In this document: piece by piece, positions 11,808 to 63,800 of the stretch | How the letters are laid out: each line of letters opens with the position of its first letter | How positions within the stretch are numbered: the stretch's first letter is position 1 | Source: Minisyncoccia bacterium | GTDB taxonomy: Bacteria; Patescibacteriota; Minisyncoccia; Phycocordibacterales; CAIZLB01 | DNA length: 64,000 bases | Direction of reading: 5' to 3' | NCBI GenBank assembly: GCA_041752275.1 | Contig: JBGSHK010000009.1 | Span: 19,156-83,155, forward strand | Notes under the pieces: generated by a model | Told to the model about the DNA's origin: nothing | What the model saw: the letters and a program-made list of their open reading frames with translations, nothing else | Databases searched by the model: none | Made by a program: the position numbers and the translations under genes

Positions 11808-12029
11808 CTACTTTCTTCTAATCAGTTTTGGTTTTCCGCCGTATGAATCCAACTCTATCTCGACTTTATCACCCACATATATACGTATACGATTGTATTT
11901 CATTTTTCCTGACATATAAGCAAGTAAAACTGCACCGTCTTCTAGTTGTACACGAAAATGCGTATCAGGTAGTGATTCTATCACTATACCGTTGAGAATT
12001 ATTTTACCTTCCTTATCTTGATTTGACAT
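11808..12029 (-). CDS. infA: Translation initiation factor IF-1
   Basis: 73-aa S1-like OB fold: GIVIESLPDTHFRVQLEDGAVLLAYMSGKMKYNRIRIYVGDKVEIELDSY. Confidence 0.85.
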   Translation of the reverse strand: MSNQDKEGKIILNGIVIESLPDTHFRVQLEDGAVLLAYMSGKMKYNRIRIYVGDKVEIELDSYGGKPKLIRRK

Positions 12030-12061
12030 ATAAAGAGTATGGTATCATACTTTGCGGAAAT

Positions 12062-18426: not shown

Positions 18427-20259
18427 TTAAAACATCCCTTCCACCTCAGTCAAATCCTTTTCTATTTTCTTCAATCCCTTCAAGAAAAAGTCTGGCTTAC
18501 TTGTATCTATTCCAATACTTTTGAAAATATCCTCAGGTGAAGCTGACCCACCCGCGCTCAAAAACTTTTTTATTTTCACTCCAAATGATTTATCTTTTTT
18601 ATATTCTTCATACAATGCGTTTGCTATAAGCTGACCATAGGCATAACTATAAACATAAAAGAAATATCTGAAATGATTTATATACACATATCCATATCCA
18701 TCAGTTTCTATAACCTCAACAGCGTCACCAACGTAGGATTTTCGACAGTCCGCAAACATGGATGCAAATTCTTCTTTGGAAACAAAACCTTTTTCTTTCA
18801 CAGCTTTATGTATATTTTTCTCATATTGAAAATATGCAATCTGTGCAAAAATAGTAAACACATTATCTTGCACCTTATTTACCAATAAATCTTTTTTCTC
18901 TTCAAGTGTTGCTATTTCCAACAAATTATCAAACAAAACATTTTCAAAAAAAGTTGATGCAACTTCAGCGATAGATATTGGATAGTCTTGATATATGGCT
19001 TCTTGTTTTTTTGACAGATCAGAATGTATAGAGTGTCCCATTTCATGAGCCAGTGTTGAAACGTCATTAAGTTTGTCTACATAATTTAACAAAACATATG
19101 TTGGAGCATTTATCATAGGCGAACAAAAAGCTCCTGATCTTTTTCCGAGTTTTGGATACACATCTATTTGTCCTTTTTTCAAATAACTTTGAAATATGTC
19201 AGCAAACTCTTGATCAACTCCTGCAAAAGATTTCGTTACCATTAAACACGCATCTTCAAATTTTATTTTCTTTTTACTTTTTGTTGTTGATATACCAGTC
19301 GCCAACTCTGCCATAGTTATCTTTTTCTCATCAGAATTTTCTATTTTGTTTAATATCTTAGCTTTAAGTTTAAAAAATCTATGTGATATATGATTATTTT
19401 TTGTTACTACATTTACTAGATTTTCTATAGATTTTACATCGTTTTGATATCCTAAAATAGTAGCTTCATAAGGAGTTTTATATCCTCGTATTTCATCATC
19501 TATTTTTTTATTTCGTATAACAGCATTTAACTCAGCCTCAGCTATGAAAGATATTTCTTTATATCTTTCCATAACTATTTTATGAAGTGCTCTTCTGTCT
19601 TTTTTGGGCAAATCAGCCTTTATACCCATAGCTTCAGACAAAGACATTTCTTTGCCTTTAAACTTTATCTTCTGTGAATTTCTATTTTTACTTCCCATCT
19701 CTTCCCAGGCTTCATGTGCAACTTGAGACTTATCGGTCAAAATCTTTTCCTCTTTTTCAGATAACATAAACTTTCCATGTAAAAAAGAACTTTCTAGTAA
19801 ATATTTATACTTTGCCAAAGTTTTATCTTTTAAATATTTTTCTTGTAACTTTTTATCAAGTTTACAAATAGCTAAACCAAAAAATATAGTTTCTTTTGAT
19901 GCTTTCAAATATATGTCAGAAAGTTTATTTATCTCTGCTTGTATTTTATCATTTGAACTATTTAAAGACTGCTGAAGTCCTAAATACCAAAGTGGAATAC
20001 TTGATGTTTTATTTGTTAAAGAATTATAATCATTTAAAGCATTTAGCATACCCTTTGAAGTTTTTAAAAACTTCAAGTCTTTATATTTATTTGCAAAAGA
20101 AACTAGGTGACGACATATAGCCTCAACATCTTTTTTTATTTTTGGATCATTTATATCTTTATATAGTTGAGAAAAATCCCATTCGGTTTTTATACTAGTT
20201 TTTGTGGTATTTTTTTTTGTAGTAGCTTTCAAGTTTGTCATATTGTGTGATTTTAACAT
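18427..20259 (-). CDS. pepF: Oligoendopeptidase F (M3 family)
   Basis: HEMGHSIH zincin motif; 610 aa. Confidence 0.85.
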   Translation of the reverse strand: MLKSHNMTNLKATTKKNTTKTSIKTEWDFSQLYKDINDPKIKKDVEAICRHLVSFANKYKDLKFLKTSKGMLNALNDYNSLTNKTSSIPLWYLGLQQSLNSSNDKIQAEINKLSDIYLKASKETIFFGLAICKLDKKLQEKYLKDKTLAKYKYLLESSFLHGKFMLSEKEEKILTDKSQVAHEAWEEMGSKNRNSQKIKFKGKEMSLSEAMGIKADLPKKDRRALHKIVMERYKEISFIAEAELNAVIRNKKIDDEIRGYKTPYEATILGYQNDVKSIENLVNVVTKNNHISHRFFKLKAKILNKIENSDEKKITMAELATGISTTKSKKKIKFEDACLMVTKSFAGVDQEFADIFQSYLKKGQIDVYPKLGKRSGAFCSPMINAPTYVLLNYVDKLNDVSTLAHEMGHSIHSDLSKKQEAIYQDYPISIAEVASTFFENVLFDNLLEIATLEEKKDLLVNKVQDNVFTIFAQIAYFQYEKNIHKAVKEKGFVSKEEFASMFADCRKSYVGDAVEVIETDGYGYVYINHFRYFFYVYSYAYGQLIANALYEEYKKDKSFGVKIKKFLSAGGSASPEDIFKSIGIDTSKPDFFLKGLKKIEKDLTEVEGMF

Positions 20260-46275: not shown

Positions 46276-46485
46276 CTATTCTCCTCTAATAGATCTGTAT
46301 ATTGTAACAAGGTCTTGCCATACAAGTATTAACATTTCTTTAGAATATTGTATAAACTCTTTAACCCACTCTTTTGCTAAAACACCACTTATATCTATGT
46401 TCAAAAAACGAAGCAATATAAGTGCAACTAAAATAATAACTATTAGCTCAAGAAAACCACCTTGCTTTTTATTATTTTTCATCAT
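46276..46485 (-). CDS. Small hypothetical membrane protein
   Basis: 69 aa with one TM (FLELIVIILVALILL). Overlaps the asnB start by 14 nt. Confidence 0.25.
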   Translation of the reverse strand: MMKNNKKQGGFLELIVIILVALILLRFLNIDISGVLAKEWVKEFIQYSKEMLILVWQDLVTIYRSIRGE

Positions 46486-48367
46486 TTATAAATCTATTAT
46501 ACCATAGGGACAACATTAATAAAGTAAATATTCTTCTTGCTGTAAATTTATCGTTTAGCTTTGATTTACTAAATAAACTTTCTATATAATCAAGGTTACA
46601 TATCTCAGATATAAGCTTATTTTCCATAATAATACTTTTAACTTTATCACTATCCTGTTTAAGCCATATATGCCATGGTGTTGGAAAACCGAGCTTCGGT
46701 CTTTTGTTTGTTCTCTCAGGCATATCTTTTGAAAATGCATCTCTCAATATAAACTTGGTTGTTCCGTTTTTATATTTCCAATCATCTATCAACCCTTCGG
46801 CCACTTTTGATACTTCAACATCCAAAAAAGGGACACGAAGCTCGAGTGAGTTTGCCATAGTCATCTTATCTGCTTTTTGCAATATATCCCCCCTCATCCA
46901 GTTATGTATATCTGCAAATTGCATGTATTCAGATGGAGAAAGTTTTGATACGTCTTGTTGTTGTAAATCAAGCTTCGCTATAAGATCTTGTGCTTTATAG
47001 TTTTTAAAAAGTTTTTCTTTTTCTTTTTCTTTAAACAAGTTTGCATTTCCAATATATCTTGATTGTACTGGTGTTAATGCGCGATTTAAAAAACTTACAC
47101 CGGGAAAACCTGCAAGTACTGGAAATAGTCTTACTTTGAAGTTAACAATGCTCAGAAGTGGTTTTAAAAAAACAAACTTAAACCACTCAGGTTGTTTGCT
47201 TATAAGTTGTATGTATTTGTTATGTGGCTCTTGATATATGCCGTAACCTCCGAAAAGTTCGTCGGCGCCTTCACCTGACAAAACAACTTTTACCTCTTTT
47301 GCCACCTCGCGAGACAATAAGAAAAGTGATATAGCAGAAGGGTCGGCTATAGGCTCATCAAAATGCCAAACACATTTTTTTAAAGATTCAAAATAATCTT
47401 CAAAAGTAACTGTGATTTCTTTATGATCTGATTTTATAAAGTCTGCAAACTCTTTTACATCAAATATTTCACTATCAATATCTTTAAAACCTATAGTATA
47501 TGTTTTCAGGTTTTTACCTTGTGCCTGCATCTCACGCTGTGCGATCATGGCAATGATTGACGAGTCAACACCTGATGACAAAAAAGAAGCAACAGGGACA
47601 TCTGCTATCATGTGATGTTGCACTGAGTCTGTTAGGATTTTTTTTATATCGTCACGAGATTTTTCATAATCAGTATCTCTTTGTTCGTTGAAATTCCATT
47701 GCCAATATTTTTCTATGAGATATTGCCCATTTTCAAGATCAACAGTCAAAGTGTGTCCAGGTGCCAGTTTGTATATGTTTTTGAAAAATGTTTCTTCGTG
47801 GGGATTATATTGAAAACTTACATAGTCAAACACATAGTCAATATTGACATCTCTCTTGACATTTTTATCTTCTAATATTGATTTTATCTCCGATGCAAAT
47901 GCTGAAATTTTTCCATCTTGTAAATTATAATACAATGGTTTAATACCAAAATGGTCTCGCACTATAAAAAGTTTATTTTTTCTTTTGTCATATATAGAGA
48001 ACGCAAACATACCTCTTAGGCGCTTTGGCAGTTCCATACCCCATTCTTCATATCCATGTACAAGGGTTTCCGTATCTGAATGAGTTTTAAAAATATGTCC
48101 CTTTGACTCTAAATCCTTACGGAGTTCTAGATGATTATATATTTCTCCATTAAACACAACTGTAACAGTTTGATCTTCGTTCGATATAGGCTGCTTACCT
48201 GCAGCTATATCTATGATAGAAAGCCGTCTCATACCCATAGCAACGCCTTCGGTGAAAAACATACCTTCATCGTCTGGTCCACGGTGGACAATGCAGTCCA
48301 AAGATCGTTTTAACAAATCTCTGTCTTGTATGATTTTATAGTTTATGAATCCGGATATGCCACACAT
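46472..48367 (-). CDS. asnB: Asparagine synthetase (glutamine-hydrolysing)
   Basis: N-terminal nucleophile MCGISGF, PP-loop SGGVDSS; 631 aa. Confidence 0.9.
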   Translation of the reverse strand: MCGISGFINYKIIQDRDLLKRSLDCIVHRGPDDEGMFFTEGVAMGMRRLSIIDIAAGKQPISNEDQTVTVVFNGEIYNHLELRKDLESKGHIFKTHSDTETLVHGYEEWGMELPKRLRGMFAFSIYDKRKNKLFIVRDHFGIKPLYYNLQDGKISAFASEIKSILEDKNVKRDVNIDYVFDYVSFQYNPHEETFFKNIYKLAPGHTLTVDLENGQYLIEKYWQWNFNEQRDTDYEKSRDDIKKILTDSVQHHMIADVPVASFLSSGVDSSIIAMIAQREMQAQGKNLKTYTIGFKDIDSEIFDVKEFADFIKSDHKEITVTFEDYFESLKKCVWHFDEPIADPSAISLFLLSREVAKEVKVVLSGEGADELFGGYGIYQEPHNKYIQLISKQPEWFKFVFLKPLLSIVNFKVRLFPVLAGFPGVSFLNRALTPVQSRYIGNANLFKEKEKEKLFKNYKAQDLIAKLDLQQQDVSKLSPSEYMQFADIHNWMRGDILQKADKMTMANSLELRVPFLDVEVSKVAEGLIDDWKYKNGTTKFILRDAFSKDMPERTNKRPKLGFPTPWHIWLKQDSDKVKSIIMENKLISEICNLDYIESLFSKSKLNDKFTARRIFTLLMLSLWYNRFINDEK

Positions 48368-52454: not shown

Positions 52455-53020
52455 TACAAATGGGTTATTCCACACGCTAGGACCATAAAGGTCCAGCCTA
52501 ATATCTCCAGATAATATCAATTATCCGGTTTTGTATTTTATTAAAATCTGCTCTTGATATATAACCAATATATTCATCTAGTCTTTTACTGTCCAGAACT
52601 CTGAGCTGAGATATCATGGCCGATTGCTCTACATCCTTAAGTAAAATTTTTACATAATATTTATTGTCTTTGTTTTTTGTAGTCAAAGGTATACCCCAGA
52701 ATAAATTATTGTTAAACTTTTTAAATATCAACACAGGACGACGAAAAATCTCACCTTTGCCATTTTCCTCATCTCCCACATTTTCACCTAAAGAGCACCG
52801 AAAAACTTGATATTCATTTATGATGACATCCCGCCTTTCTGTTTTATCCATGATTATCTTTGTTAGTATCCAATCTATAAAATGTTTTATCATTTATCTA
52901 TAATAGAATAATCCACATAAAGTTCTGATAAAGATAAAATAAATTTTCACCGAAGAAATGATAAAAAAACTGACCTTGGAATTAACCTTAGTCAGCTTTT
53001 TATTTTGAGGTTTATAAAGT
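52455..53020. repeat. Direct repeat copy B (~0.55 kb) containing a MazF-like gene and its upstream region
   Basis: See copy A. The shared ends are tacaaatgggtt...ccac (low-coordinate side) and ...cttagtcagcttttt (high-coordinate side). Confidence 0.8.
52498..52893 (-). CDS. MazF/PemK/EndoA-like endoribonuclease toxin homolog (paralog B)
   Basis: Same motifs as paralog A: [22 protein letters not shown] and [15 protein letters not shown]. ~75% identical to paralog A. Confidence 0.65.
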   Translation of the reverse strand: [131 protein letters not shown]

Positions 53021-53139: not shown

Positions 53140-53547
53140 TTAACGTTTACTCCATTGTTTACTCTTTCTCGCTTTCTTCAAACCGAATTTTCTTCTTTCT
53201 TTAGCTCTACCGTCTCTTGTTAGAAATCCTTCTTTTTTAAGTGGAGCTCTAAGCTCTGCATCAAAAGCCTCAAGAGCTCTTGCTATACCAAGTCTTACAG
53301 ACTCTGCTTGACCGTTGATACCACCACCTGTAACTTTAACTGTGATCTCGAAACCTTTTTCAGGTAGAGTTTTAACCAAAGACTCTATAGATAGGTTTTG
53401 TAGCTCTGGAGTTTTAAAATAATCTGTATGTTCTTTATCATTTATAACTACAGATGTTTTTGTAGCTGGTGTTATACGAACTCTTGCAGAAGATGTTTTT
53501 CTTCTTCCTACTGCTTCGAAGTATTTTGATGTTGATTTTGTTGCCAT
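53140..53547 (-). CDS. rpsI: 30S ribosomal protein S9
   Basis: C-terminal ...KKARKSKQWSKR. Confidence 0.9.
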   Translation of the reverse strand: MATKSTSKYFEAVGRRKTSSARVRITPATKTSVVINDKEHTDYFKTPELQNLSIESLVKTLPEKGFEITVKVTGGGINGQAESVRLGIARALEAFDAELRAPLKKEGFLTRDGRAKERRKFGLKKARKSKQWSKR

Positions 53548-53552
53548 ATTGT

Positions 53553-53897
53553 TTATTTAGTTATTTCTATATTTAAAAGCATACGATCTCTAAGTTTGTT
53601 TTTTGGTAACATACGAGATACCGCACGAACTATAACTTCCTCTACTCCTTTTCTCTCAAGAAGATGTCCTAAAAACTCTTTCTTTTGTCCACCTGGGTAT
53701 CCTGAGTATGTAAGATAATATTTTTCATCTTTTTTCTTATCAGTAATATCAAGTTTTGAAGCGTTGATAACCAAAACCTCAACATCAGCTACTACGTTTT
53801 TAGCGAAGTCCACTGAGTTTTTACCCATAAGAGCCTTTGCCACATCTTGTGCCAAGTTTCCTAATCTTTTATTTGTTGCGTCTATTGTGTATTTCAT
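53553..53897 (-). CDS. rplM: 50S ribosomal protein L13
   Basis: DATNKRLGNLAQDVAKALMGK near the N-terminus and SRMLPKNKL near the C-terminus; short 114-aa form. Confidence 0.85.
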   Translation of the reverse strand: MKYTIDATNKRLGNLAQDVAKALMGKNSVDFAKNVVADVEVLVINASKLDITDKKKDEKYYLTYSGYPGGQKKEFLGHLLERKGVEEVIVRAVSRMLPKNKLRDRMLLNIEITK

Positions 53898-53921
53898 ATG
53901 ATTGTAATTATTATAATAGAA

Positions 53922-54272
53922 TTATACTAGTTCTATGATAGCCATAAGAGCTCCATCAGTTTGTCTTGGACCTTTCTTGATAATTCTTGTGTATCCTCCG
54001 TTTCTACCAATATACTTAGGTGCTATCTCTGAGAAAAGTTTTCCAACTATATCATTGTTAGCCATACGTTTTGCAACATCACGACGTGAAGCAACAGTAT
54101 CGATACGTGCTTTTGTTATAAAATCTTCTGCATATGGTGCTGACTCTTTAGCTTTAGCTAAAGTTGTCTCTATCTTACCATGTACAAAAAGTTCACGTAC
54201 CAAAGATCTTATCAAAGCTTTTCTTTGATTTCTGCCTCTATTAAATTTTCTGTTTGCGTTGTGATGTCTCAT
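53922..54272 (-). CDS. rplQ: 50S ribosomal protein L17
   Basis: MRHHNANRKFNRGRNQRKALIRSLVRELFVHGKIETTLAKAKE. Confidence 0.9.
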   Translation of the reverse strand: MRHHNANRKFNRGRNQRKALIRSLVRELFVHGKIETTLAKAKESAPYAEDFITKARIDTVASRRDVAKRMANNDIVGKLFSEIAPKYIGRNGGYTRIIKKGPRQTDGALMAIIELV

Positions 54273-54320
54273 TGTTTTGTAAATATATCTTAAATACTCT
54301 TAAAAATCAAGTATTATTTA

Positions 54321-55298
54321 TTATTCTTTAATTGTTAAGTCAAACTTAGCTAATATCTCTTTTAACTCATCTATACCTTTTTTACCCATTCCATCAACAT
54401 CCAATAGGTCTTTTTCTTTCTTTCTGATCAAACCACCAATAGTTCTGATGTTGGCTTCTATAAGAGCATTTATAGTTCTTTGACTAATATCTAGAGACTC
54501 TATGCGAGTTTTCAAAACATCATCAAGTACATCTTTATCAAGTTTATTTTCTTCATCATCTTTAGATTCTTCTTTTTGAGACTCAACCCCTTCCTTAACA
54601 ACTTCAATATCTTGAAAATCAATAATAGCCTTAAGTTGATAAATCATTATTTCTATTGATTTTTCAAGAGCTTCTTTTGGAGTTATTGAACCATCAGTTT
54701 CTATGTTTATAACAAGTCTATTGAAATCAGTTCTATCTCCAACACGCATTTGATCAACATCATAAGATACGTTTAAAATAGGTGAAAACGCTGCATCTAA
54801 TGCAATAGATTCAACTTGAACTCTTTCTTTTTGAAGAACCTCACGAGAAACATAACCTATACCGTTTGATATTGTTATTTCCATTTGTAAAACAGTATCT
54901 GATTCTGTTATAGTCGCGATATGTTGATTTGGTGTAAGAACCTCAACTTGACCTGCAACATCAATATCTTTTGCTGTTATATCACCTAAACCTTTTTTCT
55001 TTAAAGTTAAAACAATCTCATCACCAATAACTTTAGAAAATTTTATTTTTTTTAAATTTAAAATCATTGAAATAACATCTTCTTTTACACCTTTTATAGT
55101 AGAAAATTCATGAGGTATACCTGAAATCTTTATAGATGTTATAGCGGCCCCAGAAAGTGAAGAAAGTATAATACGTCTTAAAGAGTTACCTAAAGTATGT
55201 CCGTATCCTGGATACAAACCACCTATTTCATAACTCCCTTTATTTCCTTCTTCTTTTACAATTTTTGGTTTTGATGGTGATACTATTGATGTGTTCAT
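54321..55298 (-). CDS. rpoA: DNA-directed RNA polymerase alpha subunit
   Basis: LYPGYGHTLGNSLRRIILSSLSGAAI (NTD), C-terminal CTD. Confidence 0.92.
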   Translation of the reverse strand: MNTSIVSPSKPKIVKEEGNKGSYEIGGLYPGYGHTLGNSLRRIILSSLSGAAITSIKISGIPHEFSTIKGVKEDVISMILNLKKIKFSKVIGDEIVLTLKKKGLGDITAKDIDVAGQVEVLTPNQHIATITESDTVLQMEITISNGIGYVSREVLQKERVQVESIALDAAFSPILNVSYDVDQMRVGDRTDFNRLVINIETDGSITPKEALEKSIEIMIYQLKAIIDFQDIEVVKEGVESQKEESKDDEENKLDKDVLDDVLKTRIESLDISQRTINALIEANIRTIGGLIRKKEKDLLDVDGMGKKGIDELKEILAKFDLTIKE

Positions 55299-55336
55299 AA
55301 TTTTTGTTTTTTTATTTAATAAATTATTAATGTATC

Positions 55337-55945
55337 CTATCTCTTTGAGAACTCTATTACTTGACCTAAATCAAATAATACATCTTGACCTACAAGAGTT
55401 GGCATTTTTACAACTTTTCCTGACATTTTATCTGAATCAAAAGATAGCCAATCTTGCATAGTAAAGTTTTTACTTCTCTCTGCATAATCATGGAAAGTTT
55501 TTGTTTTTTTACTTCCTTCACGTATTGAAATAATATCACCAGCTTTAACTACAGTTGAAGGTATTGTGTTCTTAACTCCATTAATCAAAACATGACCGTG
55601 AGAAACTATTTGTCTGGCAAAACGTCTTGTGTTTGAAAGACCCATACGATATATAACGTTGTCCAATCTTGTTTCTAGTTTTTTATATAACTCCTCTGGA
55701 CCTTGTATAGTTTTTGAGTCAATAACCTCTTTTATATATCTTCCAAATTGTCCTGCTGTTATACCATATGTAAAACGAGCTTTTTGTTTTTCAATCAACT
55801 GAAGACCATAAGAAGAAACATTTTTCTTACCTTTTTTACCTTTTGGAGCATTTTCCATTTTTACTCTAAACTTTTGAGTTTGAGTTTTTTCAAAAATTGG
55901 AGCACCTAGACGTTTTGCTATTTTAAATTTTGGACCGATTTTCAT
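55337..55945 (-). CDS. rpsD: 30S ribosomal protein S4
   Basis: MKIGPKFKIAKRLGAPIF, S4 domain. Confidence 0.9.
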   Translation of the reverse strand: MKIGPKFKIAKRLGAPIFEKTQTQKFRVKMENAPKGKKGKKNVSSYGLQLIEKQKARFTYGITAGQFGRYIKEVIDSKTIQGPEELYKKLETRLDNVIYRMGLSNTRRFARQIVSHGHVLINGVKNTIPSTVVKAGDIISIREGSKKTKTFHDYAERSKNFTMQDWLSFDSDKMSGKVVKMPTLVGQDVLFDLGQVIEFSKR

Positions 55946-55992
55946 ATTTGTTTAATTATTATTAGTATTATAAATTGATGTGATTCTAATTA

Positions 55993-56409
55993 TTAGATTC
56001 TTCTTGGTTTTTTAGGTTTTGGACCATTGTGTGGTACAGGAGTTCTATCTTTTATAGTATCTATAGCTATACCTTTTGATATAAAAGATCTTACAACTGA
56101 TTCACGACCAGATCCTGTACCTTTTATAACAACGCCAACTTCTTTAACACCCATAAGTATAGCTTTATCTGCTAAAACTTCACCTATCTTAGCAGCGGCA
56201 AAAGGAGTACCTTTTTTAGCACCACTAAAACCTAGAGATCCTGACGAAGAAGATGCTACAGGATTTCCTTTTTCATCTGTCAAAACAACTTTTGTGTTGT
56301 TATAAGTAGACTGTATATTTAAAACAGCATAAGCCATTTTTCTTTTACTTAATTTATTTGCAGATGATTTCGCATCTTTAGCTGTTTTTTTAATTATTGT
56401 TTTTGCCAT
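55993..56409 (-). CDS. rpsK: 30S ribosomal protein S11
   Basis: C-terminal ...DRTPVPHNGPKPKKPRRI. Confidence 0.9.
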   Translation of the reverse strand: MAKTIIKKTAKDAKSSANKLSKRKMAYAVLNIQSTYNNTKVVLTDEKGNPVASSSSGSLGFSGAKKGTPFAAAKIGEVLADKAILMGVKEVGVVIKGTGSGRESVVRSFISKGIAIDTIKDRTPVPHNGPKPKKPRRI

Positions 56410-56458
56410 AATAATGAATGTTGGATTAGATATTAGATTTGGGTTAATTTAATGTATT

Positions 56459-56836
56459 TTATTTCTTTGTCTCTTTTTTCTTACCAGATCCCATAGTTTT
56501 TTTAACACCCTTAAGAGTACGTGCATTTGTTTTTGTTCTTTGACCACGAACAGGAAGTCTTTTTGCATGTCTTACCCCTCTGTATGATTTTATATCTTTC
56601 AATCTTTTTATATTTGTCCCTATCTCTCTTTTTAAATCAGCTTCAAGTTTAAAAGACTCTATTTCTGTACGAATCATATTTTCCTCTTCAACAGATAAAT
56701 CTTTAGGTTTCTTTCCATATTCTATATTAACCTTGTCTAATATAGTGTGCGCTCTTGAGCGACCTATTCCAAAAACAGCCGTTAGAGCCATTTCTATTCT
56801 TTGATTATCTTTAAGATTTATACCTAATATACGCAT
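56459..56836 (-). CDS. rpsM: 30S ribosomal protein S13
   Basis: MRILGINLKDNQRIEMALTAVFGIGRSRA. Confidence 0.9.
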   Translation of the reverse strand: MRILGINLKDNQRIEMALTAVFGIGRSRAHTILDKVNIEYGKKPKDLSVEEENMIRTEIESFKLEADLKREIGTNIKRLKDIKSYRGVRHAKRLPVRGQRTKTNARTLKGVKKTMGSGKKKETKK

Positions 56837-56918
56837 GTATTTTTTTTAAAATTTTAATATTTTCCTTCTTTAATAAATAGTAACAAAAGCATAGCACAAA
56901 TAATATTTGTAATCAAGT

Positions 56919-57971
56919 TTATTTTTCAATAATTACATGATATTTACCTGAGGTATCTTTTTTGAAAACAGCAGAGTTTTGAAGATTTACTAAAATAGTG
57001 TTTTCTTTAACATATCTTTCCTTCATAACCTTATCAAATATCTCTTCTCTAGTCATTGGTCCATGCTTATTTATAACTTTAACTATAACATCTTTAACAA
57101 CACCTGAAACATAACCCCATTCAGATAATGCATATAGACCCCTACCCACTAAAACAAATCTATCATCTTTTATTAACTCATTGTGAGTTGTGGCCTCATG
57201 AGCTCTTTTGCCAAATACATTTTGTATAAGCTTAGCTATTTCTTTAAAGTGAACAGGAGAGCCGTGTTTTCTCATGGCCAGATATGCATAATCACGTATA
57301 CCCTTAACTTTAACATTTGTTGAAACAGTTTTACCCCATTCGCCTAAAGGGTTTTTATCTATATTTTTTGATATACGTAACCATCTTTTTGATATTTCTT
57401 CATCTTTTAATTCTTCTGAAATATCTTTTATGCTGTCCATAAAAGATTTAATCATTTCTGTTTCAGGTATCAAAGAATCGTCATCTAGATTTGTATATAG
57501 TTTTTTAAGAGCATCATGTATTTTATTGGATAAATCAGAATCAACATGCCATCTGTGATGAAATTCATCATTTTCTTTTTCTTTTTTAAACTGGTCTCCT
57601 ATTATCAATAAAAAATGATAATGATTTTGAGTAGATTCATCTTTTGATAAATTATTCAATAAATCATGCTCAGCTATTATACCTCCTATTTTTTTTACAT
57701 ATAAAGCAAGTTCTTCAAAAACCTTAGTCTCTTCTCTGAAAACTTGAGATTTTCTAATTGTAATTATAGAGTTAGCTTCTATTTGTCTTACTCTTTCACG
57801 TGTTATATTGTAATTTTCACCTATAGCTTCAAGTGTCATTTTTTCAATACTTTTATCCAAACCAAAACGATGAGATATTATAACTCTTGATCTTTCAGGT
57901 ATTGATGATAATAGTTTTTTAGTTACATTTTTTACTTTAAATGAAAATGTAGGTGTTGTGGTATTTGCCAT
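56919..57971 (-). CDS. Putative transcription-associated protein: sigma-70 region-4-like HTH (N-terminal) plus HARE-HTH / RNAP delta-like winged helix (C-terminal)
   Basis: N-terminus MTLEAIGENYNITRERVRQIEANSI resembles sigma-70 region 4.2. C-terminus HFKEIAKLIQNVFGK...DDRFVLVGRGLYALSEWGY resembles the HARE-HTH of RpoE/delta (FISLGENKWGLRSWY). Located between rpmJ-like and rpsM. Confidence 0.5.
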   Translation of the reverse strand: MANTTTPTFSFKVKNVTKKLLSSIPERSRVIISHRFGLDKSIEKMTLEAIGENYNITRERVRQIEANSIITIRKSQVFREETKVFEELALYVKKIGGIIAEHDLLNNLSKDESTQNHYHFLLIIGDQFKKEKENDEFHHRWHVDSDLSNKIHDALKKLYTNLDDDSLIPETEMIKSFMDSIKDISEELKDEEISKRWLRISKNIDKNPLGEWGKTVSTNVKVKGIRDYAYLAMRKHGSPVHFKEIAKLIQNVFGKRAHEATTHNELIKDDRFVLVGRGLYALSEWGYVSGVVKDVIVKVINKHGPMTREEIFDKVMKERYVKENTILVNLQNSAVFKKDTSGKYHVIIEK

Positions 57972-58155
57972 AATGTTCTTATATTTTTATCATGTTTGTT
58001 GATATAAGTCAAATAATGGTCAAGTGTCTTGTCAAGGACATGTTGTACTTAATGTCTTTTATATTAAAGGACAGGCTATATACAATAAGTGTCTTTTATA
58101 TAATATGAATATTTTTAAATAGATATATTAGTTTATAAAAAACAAAAACAAGGTT

Positions 58156-58278
58156 TTATCCTTGTTTTGCGTTTCTTTTGCGATTAGCTTTGTTTACACG
58201 GTATAGATGCTTGCCCCGGCGAACAAGAAACTCACCTTGACGAAGGTCTGCTTTTTTAAGTGAAGATAATAATTTCAT
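58156..58278 (-). CDS. rpmJ: Ribosomal protein bL36, zinc-independent (C-minus, YkgO-type) form; unannotated 40-aa ORF
   Basis: MKLLSSLKKADLRQGEFLVRRGKHLYRVNKANRKRNAKQG. Length and basic pattern match bL36 type B (compare MKVLSSLKSAK...RRRG..YVICK.NP..KQRQG), and it has no Cys. A hairpin AACAAGG-tttta-CCTTGTT overlaps the stop. Confidence 0.55.
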   Translation of the reverse strand: MKLLSSLKKADLRQGEFLVRRGKHLYRVNKANRKRNAKQG

Positions 58279-58341: not shown

Positions 58342-58824
58342 TTATCTAGTCACTATGATCTCTTGATCTGTATCAACTTCACTTCTAGCAACTACACTTA
58401 GCCTTCCATCTTCAGCAACTCTTAACTGATAACCTGTATCATAGTCATCTTCATTAACGTATTTAGCTGTTTCAGACTTTGGATCATAAGGTAGTTTTGG
58501 TAAATAGTCAGGAACTAAACATTCAGCTATATCAAAACTACTACCCTCTTCACCTGTTCTTATGGTAAGTGCTGACGCAGTTAGATTTCTTATTGAACCG
58601 TTACAAAAAAATTTACCCTCATGATCTGCTATGTTTTGACCTATTGCGTTTAACAATGTATTAACATTTGCAATTCTTTGAGAGTCTCTTGCTTGTTTAA
58701 ACTGACGACTAGGATTTACAGCTACCAATACAACAGTTGCCAAAATACCTATAATACCTATAACAACAAGTATTTCTATAAGTGTAAATCCTTTTTGATT
58801 TTTTATTTGATTTTGATTTTTCAT
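58342..58824 (-). CDS. Type IV pilin / pseudopilin (prepilin N-terminal methylation motif)
   Basis: KGFTLIEILVVIGIIGILATVV (G|F cleavage site, Glu+5, hydrophobic helix). Confidence 0.8.
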   Translation of the reverse strand: MKNQNQIKNQKGFTLIEILVVIGIIGILATVVLVAVNPSRQFKQARDSQRIANVNTLLNAIGQNIADHEGKFFCNGSIRNLTASALTIRTGEEGSSFDIAECLVPDYLPKLPYDPKSETAKYVNEDDYDTGYQLRVAEDGRLSVVARSEVDTDQEIIVTR

Positions 58825-59453: not shown

Positions 59454-59526
59454 GGGCCCGTAGCTTAGTTGGTAGAGCGCCTCATTTGCACTGAGGAGGT
59501 CAGGAGTTCGAATCCCCTCGGGTCCA
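59454..59526 (+). tRNA. tRNA-Ala (anticodon TGC)
   Basis: GGGCCCGTAGCTTAGTTGGTAGAGCGCCTCATTTGCACTGAGGAGGTCAGGAGTTCGAATCCCCTCGGGTCCA has the G3:U70 Ala identity pair and anticodon loop TTTGCAC. CCA is not encoded. Confidence 0.85.
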
Positions 59527-59553
59527 CAAGCTTATTATGATTTGAGTTTATAA

Positions 59554-59629
59554 CCGCCTATAGCTCAGTTGGTAGAGCAGTCGCCTCTTAAGCGAACGGT
59601 CATAGGTTCAAATCCTATTAGGCGGACCA
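59554..59629 (+). tRNA. tRNA-Lys (anticodon CTT)
   Basis: CCGCCTATAGCTCAGTTGGTAGAGCAGTCGCCTCTTAAGCGAACGGTCATAGGTTCAAATCCTATTAGGCGGACCA with anticodon loop CTCTTAA and encoded CCA. Confidence 0.85.
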
Positions 59630-59641
59630 GTTATGAAAATT

Positions 59642-59726
59642 GGGCAAGTGGCGGAATTGGTATACGCGCTAGTCTTAGGAACTAGTTCTTCACGGATTGA
59701 GGGTTCGAGTCCCTCCTTGCCCACCG
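59642..59726 (+). tRNA. tRNA-Leu (anticodon TAG)
   Basis: GGGCAAGTGGCGGAATTGGTATACGCGCTAGTCTTAGGAACTAGTTCTTCACGGATTGAGGGTTCGAGTCCCTCCTTGCCCACC has a long variable arm and anticodon loop CTTAGGA. Confidence 0.85.
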
Positions 59727-61719: not shown

Positions 61720-62013
61720 CTACTCTATATTTAAAACTCTGTTAACATTGTCTCTACTTCTTTCACTCACAGGAACTGTATTTAATATAAATCTAAAAAA
61801 ACCAAAAACAGACACCATAACAAACATACCAAAAAGTCCCCAACCCATATGAAGTCTTCCCTCTTTCATCTTTGCCGGATCAGACTTTGATTTCCATATA
61901 TATTCAAAAACACCGTACATAAAATACAGTAAAGCTACTCCAAAAAGTAATGCTATTATTGGATTTATTATGATTTCATTTATTTTAGATAAAATACTAT
62001 AGGCTTTTTGCAT
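61720..62013 (-). CDS. Small two-TM membrane protein, paralog P1 (lacks signal peptide)
   Basis: Shares motif ...WGLFGMFVMVSVFGFF with P2 and P3 (WGIVxLFVMVSVWGLVN). Confidence 0.4.
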   Translation of the reverse strand: MQKAYSILSKINEIIINPIIALLFGVALLYFMYGVFEYIWKSKSDPAKMKEGRLHMGWGLFGMFVMVSVFGFFRFILNTVPVSERSRDNVNRVLNIE

Positions 62014-62050
62014 AAACTAATTATATAATGAATTTCAACTCGAAGCAAAA

Positions 62051-62081
62051 AATAGTTAATAAAAAACTAAGGCCGAAAACC
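62051..62081. terminator. Bidirectional intrinsic terminator
   Basis: aaaaaa-CTAAGG-ccgaaaa-CCTTAG-tttttt. Confidence 0.6.
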
Positions 62082-62114
62082 TTAGTTTTTTAATTTTACA
62101 AAATATGATGTGTA

Positions 62115-62507
62115 CTATCTTGCATTAGGAGTTGCAAAAGGAGCGTTTTGAACAGGCACAGCAGGTGCTGCAGGAATATTATCATTGTCTAGATTAAAAG
62201 TTCCTCTTAAAACGTTTACAAGTCCCCAAACAGATACCATAACAAAAAGCGCAACTATACCCCACAATATATAGTTTCCAGCTTCTTTTTTATCAGCAGC
62301 ATCACCTCCCCAGAAAAATCTTCTTACTATACCAAACAAAAACAAAACTAGAGCTGCAAGTATAAGTAGAGGTAAAGCTCTTCCTGATATATATATAAGC
62401 CAGTTAAGTATGCCGTCTATACTTCTTGCAGCGTTGTTAGCAGGGGCGTTGTTAGCAAACAAAACCATAGGTGATATTAGTATTAATAATGATAGTATTT
62501 TTTTCAT
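62115..62507 (-). CDS. Small secreted two-TM protein, paralog P2 (VirB2/TrbC-like pilin candidate)
   Basis: Signal peptide MKKILSLLILISPMVLFA, TM1 LPLLILAALVLFLFGIV, short charged loop, TM2 ILWGIVALFVMVSVWGLVNVL. Confidence 0.45.
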   Translation of the reverse strand: MKKILSLLILISPMVLFANNAPANNAARSIDGILNWLIYISGRALPLLILAALVLFLFGIVRRFFWGGDAADKKEAGNYILWGIVALFVMVSVWGLVNVLRGTFNLDNDNIPAAPAVPVQNAPFATPNAR

Positions 62508-62557
62508 TTTATTTAAATTATTTTATTTTTTTAATTTTTAATTATGTACTTATTATA

Positions 62558-63073
62558 CTACTTAAACTGAGGTATAATCAAGGGTCCATTACCAAATAAA
62601 GAAACTTTTAATATATTTACCAGTCCCCAAACTGATACCATAACAAACAAAGATACTATACCCCAGAACATAAACTTGCGAGCTTGTTCACGAGACTCTG
62701 GTTTTAAACCATCAACAAATGCAAGTTTAAATATTCCATATAAAAATACAACTAAAGATGCACCTAGTATTAGATATATAAGTTGATTCATAATACCTGC
62801 AAGCCAAGCAACTAAACCCGCAAGAGAAACTTTTGGTACACTACTGTTAGATGATGAAAATGGAGATGATCTGTTTAACTCAGATCCGGAAACACTGTTT
62901 TGACTACCTAAACCTGTACTTATAGCACCATCACCAGATCCAGGCATTATATTACCAGGATTTGTACCACTTTGATTTATATTACCAGGATTTGTCCCTC
63001 TAGGACTAATAGGATCAGCGGCAAAAGTAATTACACTTATCAACAGCAAGGTTATTACAAATATTTTTTTCAT
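62558..63073 (-). CDS. Small secreted two-TM protein, paralog P3 with repeat-containing Gly/Ser/Asn-rich variable region
   Basis: Signal peptide, internal GTNPGNI repeat (DNA repeat attaccaggatttgt at 62950 and 62980), TM1 LIYLILGASLVVFLYGIF, TM2 FWGIVSLFVMVSVWGLVNIL. Confidence 0.45.
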   Translation of the reverse strand: MKKIFVITLLLISVITFAADPISPRGTNPGNINQSGTNPGNIMPGSGDGAISTGLGSQNSVSGSELNRSSPFSSSNSSVPKVSLAGLVAWLAGIMNQLIYLILGASLVVFLYGIFKLAFVDGLKPESREQARKFMFWGIVSLFVMVSVWGLVNILKVSLFGNGPLIIPQFK

Positions 63074-63103
63074 ATTATTTTGATTTAAATTATTATTTAT
63101 ATA

Positions 63104-63451
63104 TTATTGTCCTTTAAAAACTTCTTTAACTGTGTCCCCTATACCTAAAGCCAAAACCTCAGCAGTAAGTATAAGTGCAGCACCTACCAAGCCCCACAGT
63201 AGTGCATTTCTAGCATCCCCTATTTTTTTCGGATCACCTTTGGCTGTAACAAACATAAAACCTGCATATATAAGATAAAGTGTTGTTATCATTATAACTA
63301 TGGTTTGTGCTATATCTAAAACATTCATAAAAACTGTTCTCAGGTCGGTACCTTCACCAAGAGGTGGTTTTATTGGTGCACTTACTGCATATATTGCAAC
63401 ACTTTTAAGTGAAGTTATTAAAGTTGCGATTATTATTGCTATTTTTTTCAT
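63104..63451 (-). CDS. Small secreted two-TM protein, paralog P4 (second subfamily)
   Basis: Signal peptide MKKIAIIIATLITSLKSVA, TM1 IVIMITTLYLIYAGFMFV, loop TAKGDPKK, TM2 LLWGLVGAALILTAEVLAL. This topology is typical of VirB2/TrbC pilins. Confidence 0.45.
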   Translation of the reverse strand: MKKIAIIIATLITSLKSVAIYAVSAPIKPPLGEGTDLRTVFMNVLDIAQTIVIMITTLYLIYAGFMFVTAKGDPKKIGDARNALLWGLVGAALILTAEVLALGIGDTVKEVFKGQ

Positions 63452-63476
63452 TTTTTTATTATTTTATATATTTATT

Positions 63477-63800
63477 CTATATAATAGTATCTCTTCTAAA
63501 TTCTTCAGAAACACCTAAGCTGTCTAACATAAACTCAACTATATAATAAGCTCCAACAAGTAATATCATACCTATAACTATGCCTATAAATATTTTTCTA
63601 ACTTGTGTTCTTGCATCAGCTGAACCTTGTTTAGTTACAAGTATATAGCCAGCATAAAAAATCATCAGAGTTGCAATAAAAAATCCTAGGAGAATCATGT
63701 TTTGAAGCAACTCGGTTATTATAGGATTTAAATCTGACCAACCACATCCTCCACCTAATTTGTCTTCAAAACATTTTGATAAACTTGAAAATAATTCCAT
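63477..63800 (-). CDS. Small two-TM protein, paralog P5 (second subfamily)
   Basis: MILLGFFIATLMIFYAGYILVTKQGSADARTQVRKIFIGIVIGMILLVGAYYIV has the same helix-loop-helix layout as P4. Confidence 0.4.
   Translation of the reverse strand: MELFSSLSKCFEDKLGGGCGWSDLNPIITELLQNMILLGFFIATLMIFYAGYILVTKQGSADARTQVRKIFIGIVIGMILLVGAYYIVEFMLDSLGVSEEFRRDTII

Follow-up and report, generated by a model that had tools for sequence, protein, structure and literature searches.

The 64,000-nucleotide stretch analysed here (the window; positions 19,156 to 83,155 of contig JBGSHK010000009.1, assembly GCA_041752275.1, from a Minisyncoccia bacterium) contains an open reading frame (ORF) of 350 amino acids (aa), ORF350, next to the ribosomal protein gene rpsM. 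ORF350 is a member of a large, uniform, uncharacterised protein family of the Parcubacteria (Paceibacteria). Its domains are an N-terminal sigma-70 region 4 (sigma-4) and, further inside, a HARE-HTH domain; its -35-contacting residues are near-invariant, its gene is preceded by gene-specific tandem TTGAC boxes and has its own promoter separate from that of rpsM, and its position beside rpsM is lineage-restricted. We tentatively favour the interpretation that ORF350 is a TTGAC-binding, probably autoregulated DNA-binding transcription factor, whose HARE-HTH and winged-helix modules would add DNA or polymerase contacts. The binding to TTGAC, the autoregulation and any contact with RNA polymerase are what we infer. 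Neither domain is new, and database records with these Pfam annotations already exist for thousands of family members. What is new is that the family is a uniform Parcubacteria-wide unit with strongly constrained -35-reading residues, that its promoter carries gene-specific tandem -35-like boxes, and that the position in the rpoA operon is a clade-specific rearrangement coinciding with a switch to a ribosomal protein L36 without cysteines.

The protein is encoded on the minus strand and consists of five modules. The evidence for each is given in brackets; AF2 is the AlphaFold2 model and pLDDT its confidence measure, the predicted local distance difference test.

56919..57971, minus strand: ORF350, ATG start, 350 aa (ORF list).
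57732..57944, minus strand: sigma-70 region 4 (4.1 and 4.2), aa 10-80 (Pfam, family profile, Foldseek).
57318..57731, minus strand: two winged-helix-like helix/strand modules, aa 81-218 (AF2 secondary structure, pLDDT mostly >85).
57102..57317, minus strand: HARE-HTH domain, aa 219-290 (PF05066, conserved columns).
56922..57101, minus strand: C-terminal winged helix, aa 291-350, weakly HARE-HTH-like (sub-threshold PF05066, topology in models).

The two domains had been recognised in the first-pass annotation from the sequence alone, and both calls were right, as the Pfam matches exceed the gathering scores. Sigma70_r4 (PF04545) matches aa 20-69 with 44.8 bits against a gathering score of 24.1 (E-value 8.8e-12), and HARE-HTH (PF05066) matches aa 228-285 with 36.6 bits against 25.9 (E 6.2e-9); the HARE-HTH segment scanned alone scores 27.8 bits with PF05066. 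In a profile of 44 homologues, residues 11-72 align to positions 541-601 of E. coli sigma70, that is, to regions 4.1 and 4.2 (E ~1e-11), and T57-Q63 (TRERVRQ) aligns with T583-Q589 of the -35 recognition helix. The AF2 model has a mean pLDDT of 82. Its only significant neighbours found by Foldseek are region 4 domains of group-1 sigmas (7kug_B, 4g6d_A, 1ku3) with a root-mean-square deviation of 1.3-2.4 A. The likeness to region 4 of RpoD/SigA thus includes the same fold, 33-37% identity over about 62 residues and an identical TRERxRQIE motif.

The remaining modules are less easily placed. The C-terminal module, aa 291-350, matches PF05066 below threshold (E 0.012, 16.5 bits) and has a helix-helix-helix-strand-strand topology in the models. 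No Pfam family matches aa 81-218, and Foldseek found for this segment only generic winged-helix or tandem winged-helix-array matches, none at E <=0.001. RseA_N was considered for the middle region and rejected (14-16 bits against a cut-off of 24). Profile-profile comparison among the five modules detected no sequence relationship, with all probabilities <5%, and the possibility of four duplicated HARE-HTH domains is thus unsupported at the sequence level. The whole array weakly resembles the RPC62/C82 and TFIIE-like tandem winged-helix arrays in Foldseek (probability <=0.5, template modelling score ~0.15, E >0.01), which is an architectural analogy and no evidence of homology. The isoelectric point (pI) of the whole protein is 9.1 and that of the sigma-4 module 10.4; the sigma-4 and HARE-HTH modules span 9.5-10.4, whereas those at aa 81-218 are mildly acidic (4.9-5.6).

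ORF350 is excluded as a true sigma factor because it lacks region 2. When the full protein and its fragments were scanned with Pfam and NCBIfam, no region 2 (PF04542) was found and only region 4 was matched; the NCBIfam sigma models match with just their C-terminal 60-70 residues, far under the cut-offs. Unlike group-1 sigmas, ORF350 has no matches to regions 1.2, 2 and 3, and its sigma-4 domain is N-terminal and followed by four unrelated modules. Lacking these regions, it cannot melt promoters or bind core polymerase as sigma does, and the earlier suggestion of a minimal sigma was not borne out.

The same annotation had also suggested a delta-like factor, after the delta subunit (RpoE) of Firmicutes RNA polymerase. 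The HARE-HTH domain of ORF350 does have the DxRF...WGL/Y signature, and the delta N-terminal model TIGR04567 gives a match, at 31.7 bits under its cut-off of 42. However, ORF350 is basic and twice as long as delta, its HARE-HTH domain is internal and not N-terminal, and it has no acidic disordered C-terminal region: the protein stops at aa 350 right behind the folded basic winged helix, with no acidic tract. The polyanionic C-terminal region, with a net charge of -47, is needed for delta activity and is essential to its mechanism (PMC7749165). With the delta model under its cut-off and the acidic tail absent, the likeness to delta does not hold for the protein as a whole, and it is highly improbable that ORF350 is a functional equivalent of delta, recycling RNA polymerase by displacement of nucleic acids.

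The family is large. A word-indexed search gave no fewer than 8000 clusters of homologues at 90% identity; the top 120 clusters are full-length, 63-100% identical, and nearly all have both Pfam domains. An exhaustive HMMER search, with ORF350 residues 81-350 only as the query, gave 370 clusters (50% identity) at E <1e-30 and 792 at E <1e-10. Among the best 150 of these matches listed, nearly all are 330-390 aa long, and the match begins near residue 80. In a set of 129 diverse representatives (30-54% identity), Sigma70_r4 was found in 128 and HARE-HTH in 125. The positions conserved in >=90% of this set are T57, R58, E59, R60, R62, Q63 and I64 in the sigma-4 domain and the block T261-G290 in the HARE-HTH domain. 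TRERxRQI, corresponding to sigma70 T583-I590, is near-invariant across the family. The sigma70 residues matching T57-Q63 are established as those in base-specific contact with the TTGACA -35 element (R584/R588 specificity mutants; Taq sigmaA region 4 with -35 DNA, PDB 1KU7). The HARE-HTH domain is the most conserved block of the family, with the pattern THNELIKDxRFVLVGRGxYALxEWGY. In a comparison of proteins paired by equal length of their longest contigs, the ORF350 orthologues are 65% identical and the S13 proteins 74-75%, a shared contig being confirmed for one pair. Conservation of the family thus seems close to the level of a ribosomal protein, which suggests a housekeeping character.

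All named sources are of the Parcubacteria type (Nomura-, Adler-, Kaiser-, Zambryski-, Yonath-, Campbell- and Torokbacteria, Paceibacterota). Some records bear the label Saccharibacteria but share about 90% identity with others labelled Parcubacteria, and the former label was treated as unreliable. The NCBI name, "sigma factor-like helix-turn-helix DNA-binding protein", is generic and at the level of domains. No curated family model covers ORF350 in the Pfam and NCBIfam scans, and within the searchable literature no paper was found on the family, its promoter boxes or its gene contexts, or on sigma-4/HARE-HTH proteins in the Candidate Phyla Radiation (CPR). Aravind and Iyer (2012, Cell Cycle 11:119) reportedly mention bacterial HARE-HTH proteins combining features of the RNA polymerase alpha subunit and of sigma factors. 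The sigma-module/HARE-HTH architecture was thus probably noted when HARE-HTH was defined. No alpha-CTD-like module (C-terminal domain of alpha) was detected in ORF350 by Pfam scans. In one locus (L065:4001-5002; loci are numbered with the prefix L) a second family member occupies the next ORF, 12 nucleotides (nt) downstream, as a tandem duplicate.

Restriction systems often contain HARE-HTH domains, and MzaA, the sigma factor of the MZA anti-phage system, is the best match of ORF350 in NCBIfam and PADLOC, so that a defence or mobile-element protein was considered. However, the MzaA match scores 63 bits against a cut-off of 800 and covers only positions 636-705 of the 726-position model, the PADLOC match being equally partial. 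The protein has neither a nuclease nor an ATPase domain, its gene lies among housekeeping genes, and the family is near-absent from viral contigs, with two weak full-length relatives among 2.9 million of them. A defence function is accordingly the explanation to which we give the least credence. The two viral relatives (L087 and L088, contigs of IMG/VR) are distant, with 30-33% identity over aa 13-346, and may come from CPR phages or be misclassified cellular contigs.

The upstream region of ORF350 and the spacer between ORF350 and rpsM contain the following candidate signals.

57983..58035, minus strand: promoter of ORF350 (pattern scan and conservation).
58036..58115, minus strand: decayed relic with a palindrome remnant AAAAGACA..TGTCTTTT (folding compared with relatives).
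58135..58168, minus strand: intrinsic-terminator-like hairpin with a T-run, overlapping the L36 stop codon.
56888..56927, minus strand: promoter of the rpsM operon in the 82-bp spacer (core invariant in 13 loci).

The ORF350 promoter contains three TTGAC boxes, at 58035-58031, 58023-58019 and 58012-58008, with spacings of 12 and 11 nt. The third box (TTGACT) is placed as the -35 element, and 17 nt on there is an extended -10-like TGATAAAAAT. The segment GTCCTTGACA-N6-TTGAC-N6-TTTGACTTATATCAACAAACATGATAAAAAT directly 5' of the ORF350 start shows hardly any variation between the window and nine relatives. In other contexts too, a consensus promoter (TTGAC-17-TGnTATATT) precedes the orthologue, directly behind leuS; the gene seems to keep its promoter from one location to another.

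The 120-nt segments preceding the orthologues were set against those preceding every other ORF of 100 aa or more in the same loci. At least one TTGAC precedes 63 of 75 orthologues and 32 of 426 other genes; tandem TTGAC-N4-8-TTGAC sites precede 26 of 75 orthologues and none of the 426. The tandem boxes were observed in all 15 loci where the gene stands next to rps genes and in 11 of 60 loci with other contexts. The latter fraction, compared with 0/426, gives a Fisher p of 4e-11, a value to be read with the reservations that many control genes lie inside operons, that ORF starts were assigned mechanically and that related loci are not independent. The only other tandem-TTGAC site in the window is a symmetric cluster of four boxes, GTCAAacacataGTCAAtaTTGACatctctcTTGAC, at 47825-47860 inside asnB (46472..48367, minus strand). 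This cluster may have arisen by chance, or a TTGAC-binding factor may have a further target here.

A different motif, AAGTGTCTT, had been reported to occur twice in this region as a candidate operator. It does occur twice, at 58022 and 58087, and nowhere else in the window, but the operator role is rejected: the motif is not conserved in relatives, where the conserved elements are the TTGAC boxes. At least two copies somewhere in the window were also seen in 21 of 100 shuffles. One copy (58022-58030) coincides with the non-conserved spacer that separates TTGAC boxes 1 and 2; the other (58087-58095) is what is left of the 5' arm of a hairpin still intact in relatives. There, the full palindrome AAAAGACAT..ATGTCTTTT forms a hairpin of 16-18 bp (L007, L002; z-score about -5.5), whereas in the window the structure is weak (z -1.7). 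The segment 58036-58115 looks like the decayed end of a DUF192-type gene plus a hairpin.

Adlerbacteria-type loci (L025, L027, L030, L033, L039, L044 and others) have TTGACC-N-GTGTGATATATTAGAACACAC as the promoter upstream of the orthologue. An inverted repeat, TGTG-N11-CACA, spans its -10 element and the start region; this repeat might serve as an operator in its own right or fold into a 5' hairpin.

The mechanism that would account for these observations on our preferred reading is as follows. The sigma-4 helix-turn-helix would read -35-like TTGAC(A) hexamers, and the basic HARE-HTH and winged-helix modules would add contacts with DNA or RNA polymerase. ORF350 would probably regulate its own promoter via the TTGAC boxes, which are stacked one helical turn apart. 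A number of points weigh against this. The boxes are not obligatory, as tandem boxes are missing from 49 of the 60 promoters of orthologues that lie outside the window clade. They could instead offer the housekeeping sigma a stacked choice of -35 elements. In L010-14 and L017 the three boxes lie within the 3' coding end of the upstream gene, where they form Leu-Thr codons (..SLTKDLTGELT..), and their conservation in these loci may partly reflect coding constraint. The HARE-HTH region is the part of the AF2 model with the lowest confidence (pLDDT 58-70), so that this domain is identified by its profile match. The family has no characterised member, and binding to TTGAC is a prediction made from the sequence. 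Finally, the HARE-HTH domain of delta binds RNA polymerase, not DNA (PMC7749165), and a sigma-4 domain on its own could attach to the beta-flap; a polymerase-bound role is thus conceivable.

On domain grounds alone, a role linked to RNA polymerase is possible. One explanation of this kind, to which we assign a minor but real share of the probability, is that ORF350 is an accessory factor bound to the polymerase. Its sigma-4 domain would sit on the beta-flap tip helix, replacing sigma region 4 or lying beside it, and its HARE-HTH domain on the beta-prime shelf/jaw, the site that delta occupies with its N-terminal domain (PMC7749165). The sigma-4 domain is indeed nearest to group-1 sigmas, region 4.1 included, and HARE-HTH corresponds to the polymerase-binding N-terminal domain of delta, which resembles sigma region 1.1 (PMC7749165). 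The very strong, housekeeping-like conservation of the family is consistent with such a factor, as is the fact that in one clade the gene heads the rpsM-rpoA cluster with no terminator between. However, this operon link exists in one clade only and both units are separately promoted. The strongest selection acts on the DNA-reading residues, for which a pure flap-binder would have no need. Moreover, canonical TTGAC-N17-TAnnnT promoters occur elsewhere in the window and, as far as the promoter pattern goes, would fit a housekeeping sigma that reads the -35 element itself.

A polymerase-bound factor would be a sigma-competitor, an adaptor or a trans-acting region 4, by analogy with two-part sigma systems. 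In B. subtilis SigO-RsoA and in phage T4 gp55 with gp33, sigma-like functions are spread over separate polypeptides. As in these systems, a region-4 protein could conceivably work on its own at the beta-flap or at the -35 element. Unlike in these systems, no partner region-2 protein was found: a search for a split sigma detected no sigma region-2 gene in the window or in 86 loci, and no linkage to a sigma gene was seen in 167 loci.

It is also conceivable, though unlikely, that ORF350 is an essential general transcription factor of all Parcubacteria and of a new kind, in which a separate sigma region 4, joined to an array of winged helices, cooperates with the RNA polymerase holoenzyme. By docking on the beta-flap it would supply or replace -35 recognition in trans, or else it would occupy TTGAC boxes beside the -35 element of the holoenzyme. 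If this were true, the strength of promoters in these reduced genomes would depend on arrays of -35-like boxes and not on classical activators.

The genomes of Parcubacteria and other CPR bacteria are very small and encode few regulators that can be recognised, and to our knowledge nothing has been established experimentally about the control of their transcription. ORF350 is a concrete candidate for a lineage-wide transcription factor, a -35-reading head without the rest of sigma that has an array of -35-like boxes of its own.

A further alternative is a nucleoid-associated or chromosome-organising protein, whose five modules of the helix-turn-helix type would bind DNA broadly, perhaps sense modified bases through HARE-HTH, and not regulate particular promoters. 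Such a protein would fit the winged-helix array and the basic overall charge, the presence of the family across the named Parcubacteria lineages sampled, and the strong consensus promoter; HARE-HTH domains have also been proposed to read modified DNA, and are reported to do so in animals (PMC3417536, PMC6591016). However, the invariant residues are those of sequence-specific -35 reading and point to a defined target, the tandem boxes are gene-specific, and the middle modules are acidic. We thus consider a nucleoid role rather improbable.

The neighbourhood of ORF350 in the window consists of the following features.

58342-58824, minus strand: type IV pilin-like gene (N_methyl motif).
58156..58278, minus strand: 40-aa L36 ORF without cysteines, zinc-independent type (sub-threshold matches to L36 and type B L36, purifying selection, comparison with L081 and L085).
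56459-56836, minus strand: rpsM, separated from ORF350 by the 82-bp spacer.
54321-55298, minus strand: rpoA.
53140..56836, minus strand: rpsM-rpsK-rpsD-rpoA-rplQ-rplM-rpsI cluster downstream of ORF350, in identical order in relatives.

The minus-strand order over 53.1-58.8 kb is therefore pilin, 40-aa ORF, ORF350, rpsM, rpsK, rpsD, rpoA, rplQ, rplM, rpsI, and the 350-aa ORF does lie between an rpmJ-like gene and rpsM, as first described. That description had further taken the gene to be inserted inside the conserved rpoA operon and co-transcribed with the alpha subunit. Co-transcription is not required by the signals observed. The hairpin at the end of the L36 gene has a folding energy of -12.8 kcal/mol (z -5.0), with an invariant stem and a variable loop in 10 loci, and ORF350 and rpsM have separate invariant promoters. 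The rpsM promoter consists of an A-rich tract GAAAAATAAA overlapping the ORF350 stop codon, TTGATT, a 17-nt spacer and TGcTATGCT. No terminator-like structure was found in the RNA of the ORF350-rpsM spacer (z +2.2). Read-through from ORF350 into rpsM-rpoA is possible, with each unit separately promoted.

As for conservation of the insertion, we surveyed the context of the gene in 80 loci from species-representative genomes. The order pilin-L36-ORF350-rpsM-rpsK-rpsD-rpoA-rplQ was found in only 15 of them (L001-L014 and L017), all with at least 80% identity to ORF350. At 51-65% identity, none of the 63 loci with resolved gene order has ribosomal neighbours. Instead, the orthologue comes after leuS (48 loci) or typA and is followed, in this order, by genes for an uncharacterised 445-aa membrane protein (51), YceG/mltG (50) and mnmA (22), all on the same strand. 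A search of the window for leuS, mltG, mnmA, typA and the membrane protein gave an empty output. On one contig of 771,708 bp the orthologue follows leuS at about 52.8 kb and rpsM lies at about 66.7 kb on the same strand, so that the orthologue stands about 13 kb upstream of rpsM.

Conversely, intact ribosomal operons without the gene were found elsewhere. In L081-L086 the operon infA-rpmJ-rpsM has no insert. Genomes whose S13 is 74-77% identical to that of the window have the order alaS-x-x-infA-rpmJ-rpsM-rpsK-rpsD-rpoA-rplQ-rplM-rpsI-grpE-x-dnaK, and the infA-rpsM gap in these relatives is 208 bp (271 bp in L085) and contains only a canonical CxxC..C..H L36 gene. Relatives that keep the operon but lack the gene at this position had been named in the first-pass annotation as a finding that would count against it, and here they count against the operon argument. 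The insertion is thus confined to one clade, and the gene orders compared indicate that a clade-specific local rearrangement placed ORF350 beside rpsM. As ORF350 is beside rpsM in one clade only, its position in the operon does not make it a polymerase subunit; the placement near rpoA is a recent local rearrangement and is uninformative on the function of the family. This case shows the limit of inferring function from gene position.

Even within the clade of the window, ORF350 is not simply inserted between rpmJ and rpsM, as extra genes stand in the spacer: a DUF192 gene between L36 and the ORF350 orthologue in L003 and L009, and a PGA_cap plus DUF192 gene in L010-L014 and L017. This clade has also lost infA from the rpsM site and swapped the zinc-type L36 for one without cysteines. 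In the window infA is at 11814-12017 on the minus strand, 46 kb from the rpsM cluster, whereas in relatives it is directly upstream of rpmJ. A promoter-like sequence TTGACA-N-TGgTATCAT at 12023-12048 on the plus strand adjoins the infA gene of the window.

The 40-aa ORF, MKLLSSLKKADLRQGEFLVRRGKHLYRVNKANRKRNAKQG, had been described as an L36 of the cysteine-less type, and the zinc ligands CxxC...C...H are indeed absent: there is no cysteine, and the sole histidine is off the ligand position. In the relatives L081 (4869-4985) and L085 (4859-4975), L36 is canonical, with C11, C14, C27 and H33. The assignment to L36 comes from profile matches below the cut-offs, namely the type B L36 model NF002021 (E 9.6e-9, 35 bits against 70) and Pfam L36 PF00444 (22.2 bits against 26.1), together with the length, the start MK.x.S.KK, the end KQG and the position upstream of rpsM. 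In 15 related loci the ORF has 13-21 synonymous and 2-7 non-synonymous codon differences; such purifying selection implies a real gene. No second L36 was found in the window.

Among the intergenic regions at 52-60.5 kb, a scan with Rfam detected no RNA family except three tRNAs. These are tRNA-Ala(TGC), tRNA-Lys(CTT) and tRNA-Leu(TAG), clustered at 59454-59725 on the plus strand and convergent with the pilin-L36 unit. On the other side of the ribosomal cluster, a gene for a PemK/MazF-type toxin (52498-52893, minus strand) stands between rpsI and grpE, and the relatives have an unannotated gene of 131-151 aa there. Five consecutive genes for small membrane proteins occupy 61720-63800 on the minus strand. 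One of them, at 62115-62507, matches the type IV secretion system pilin family PF18895, and the other four have similar hydrophobic C-terminal halves.

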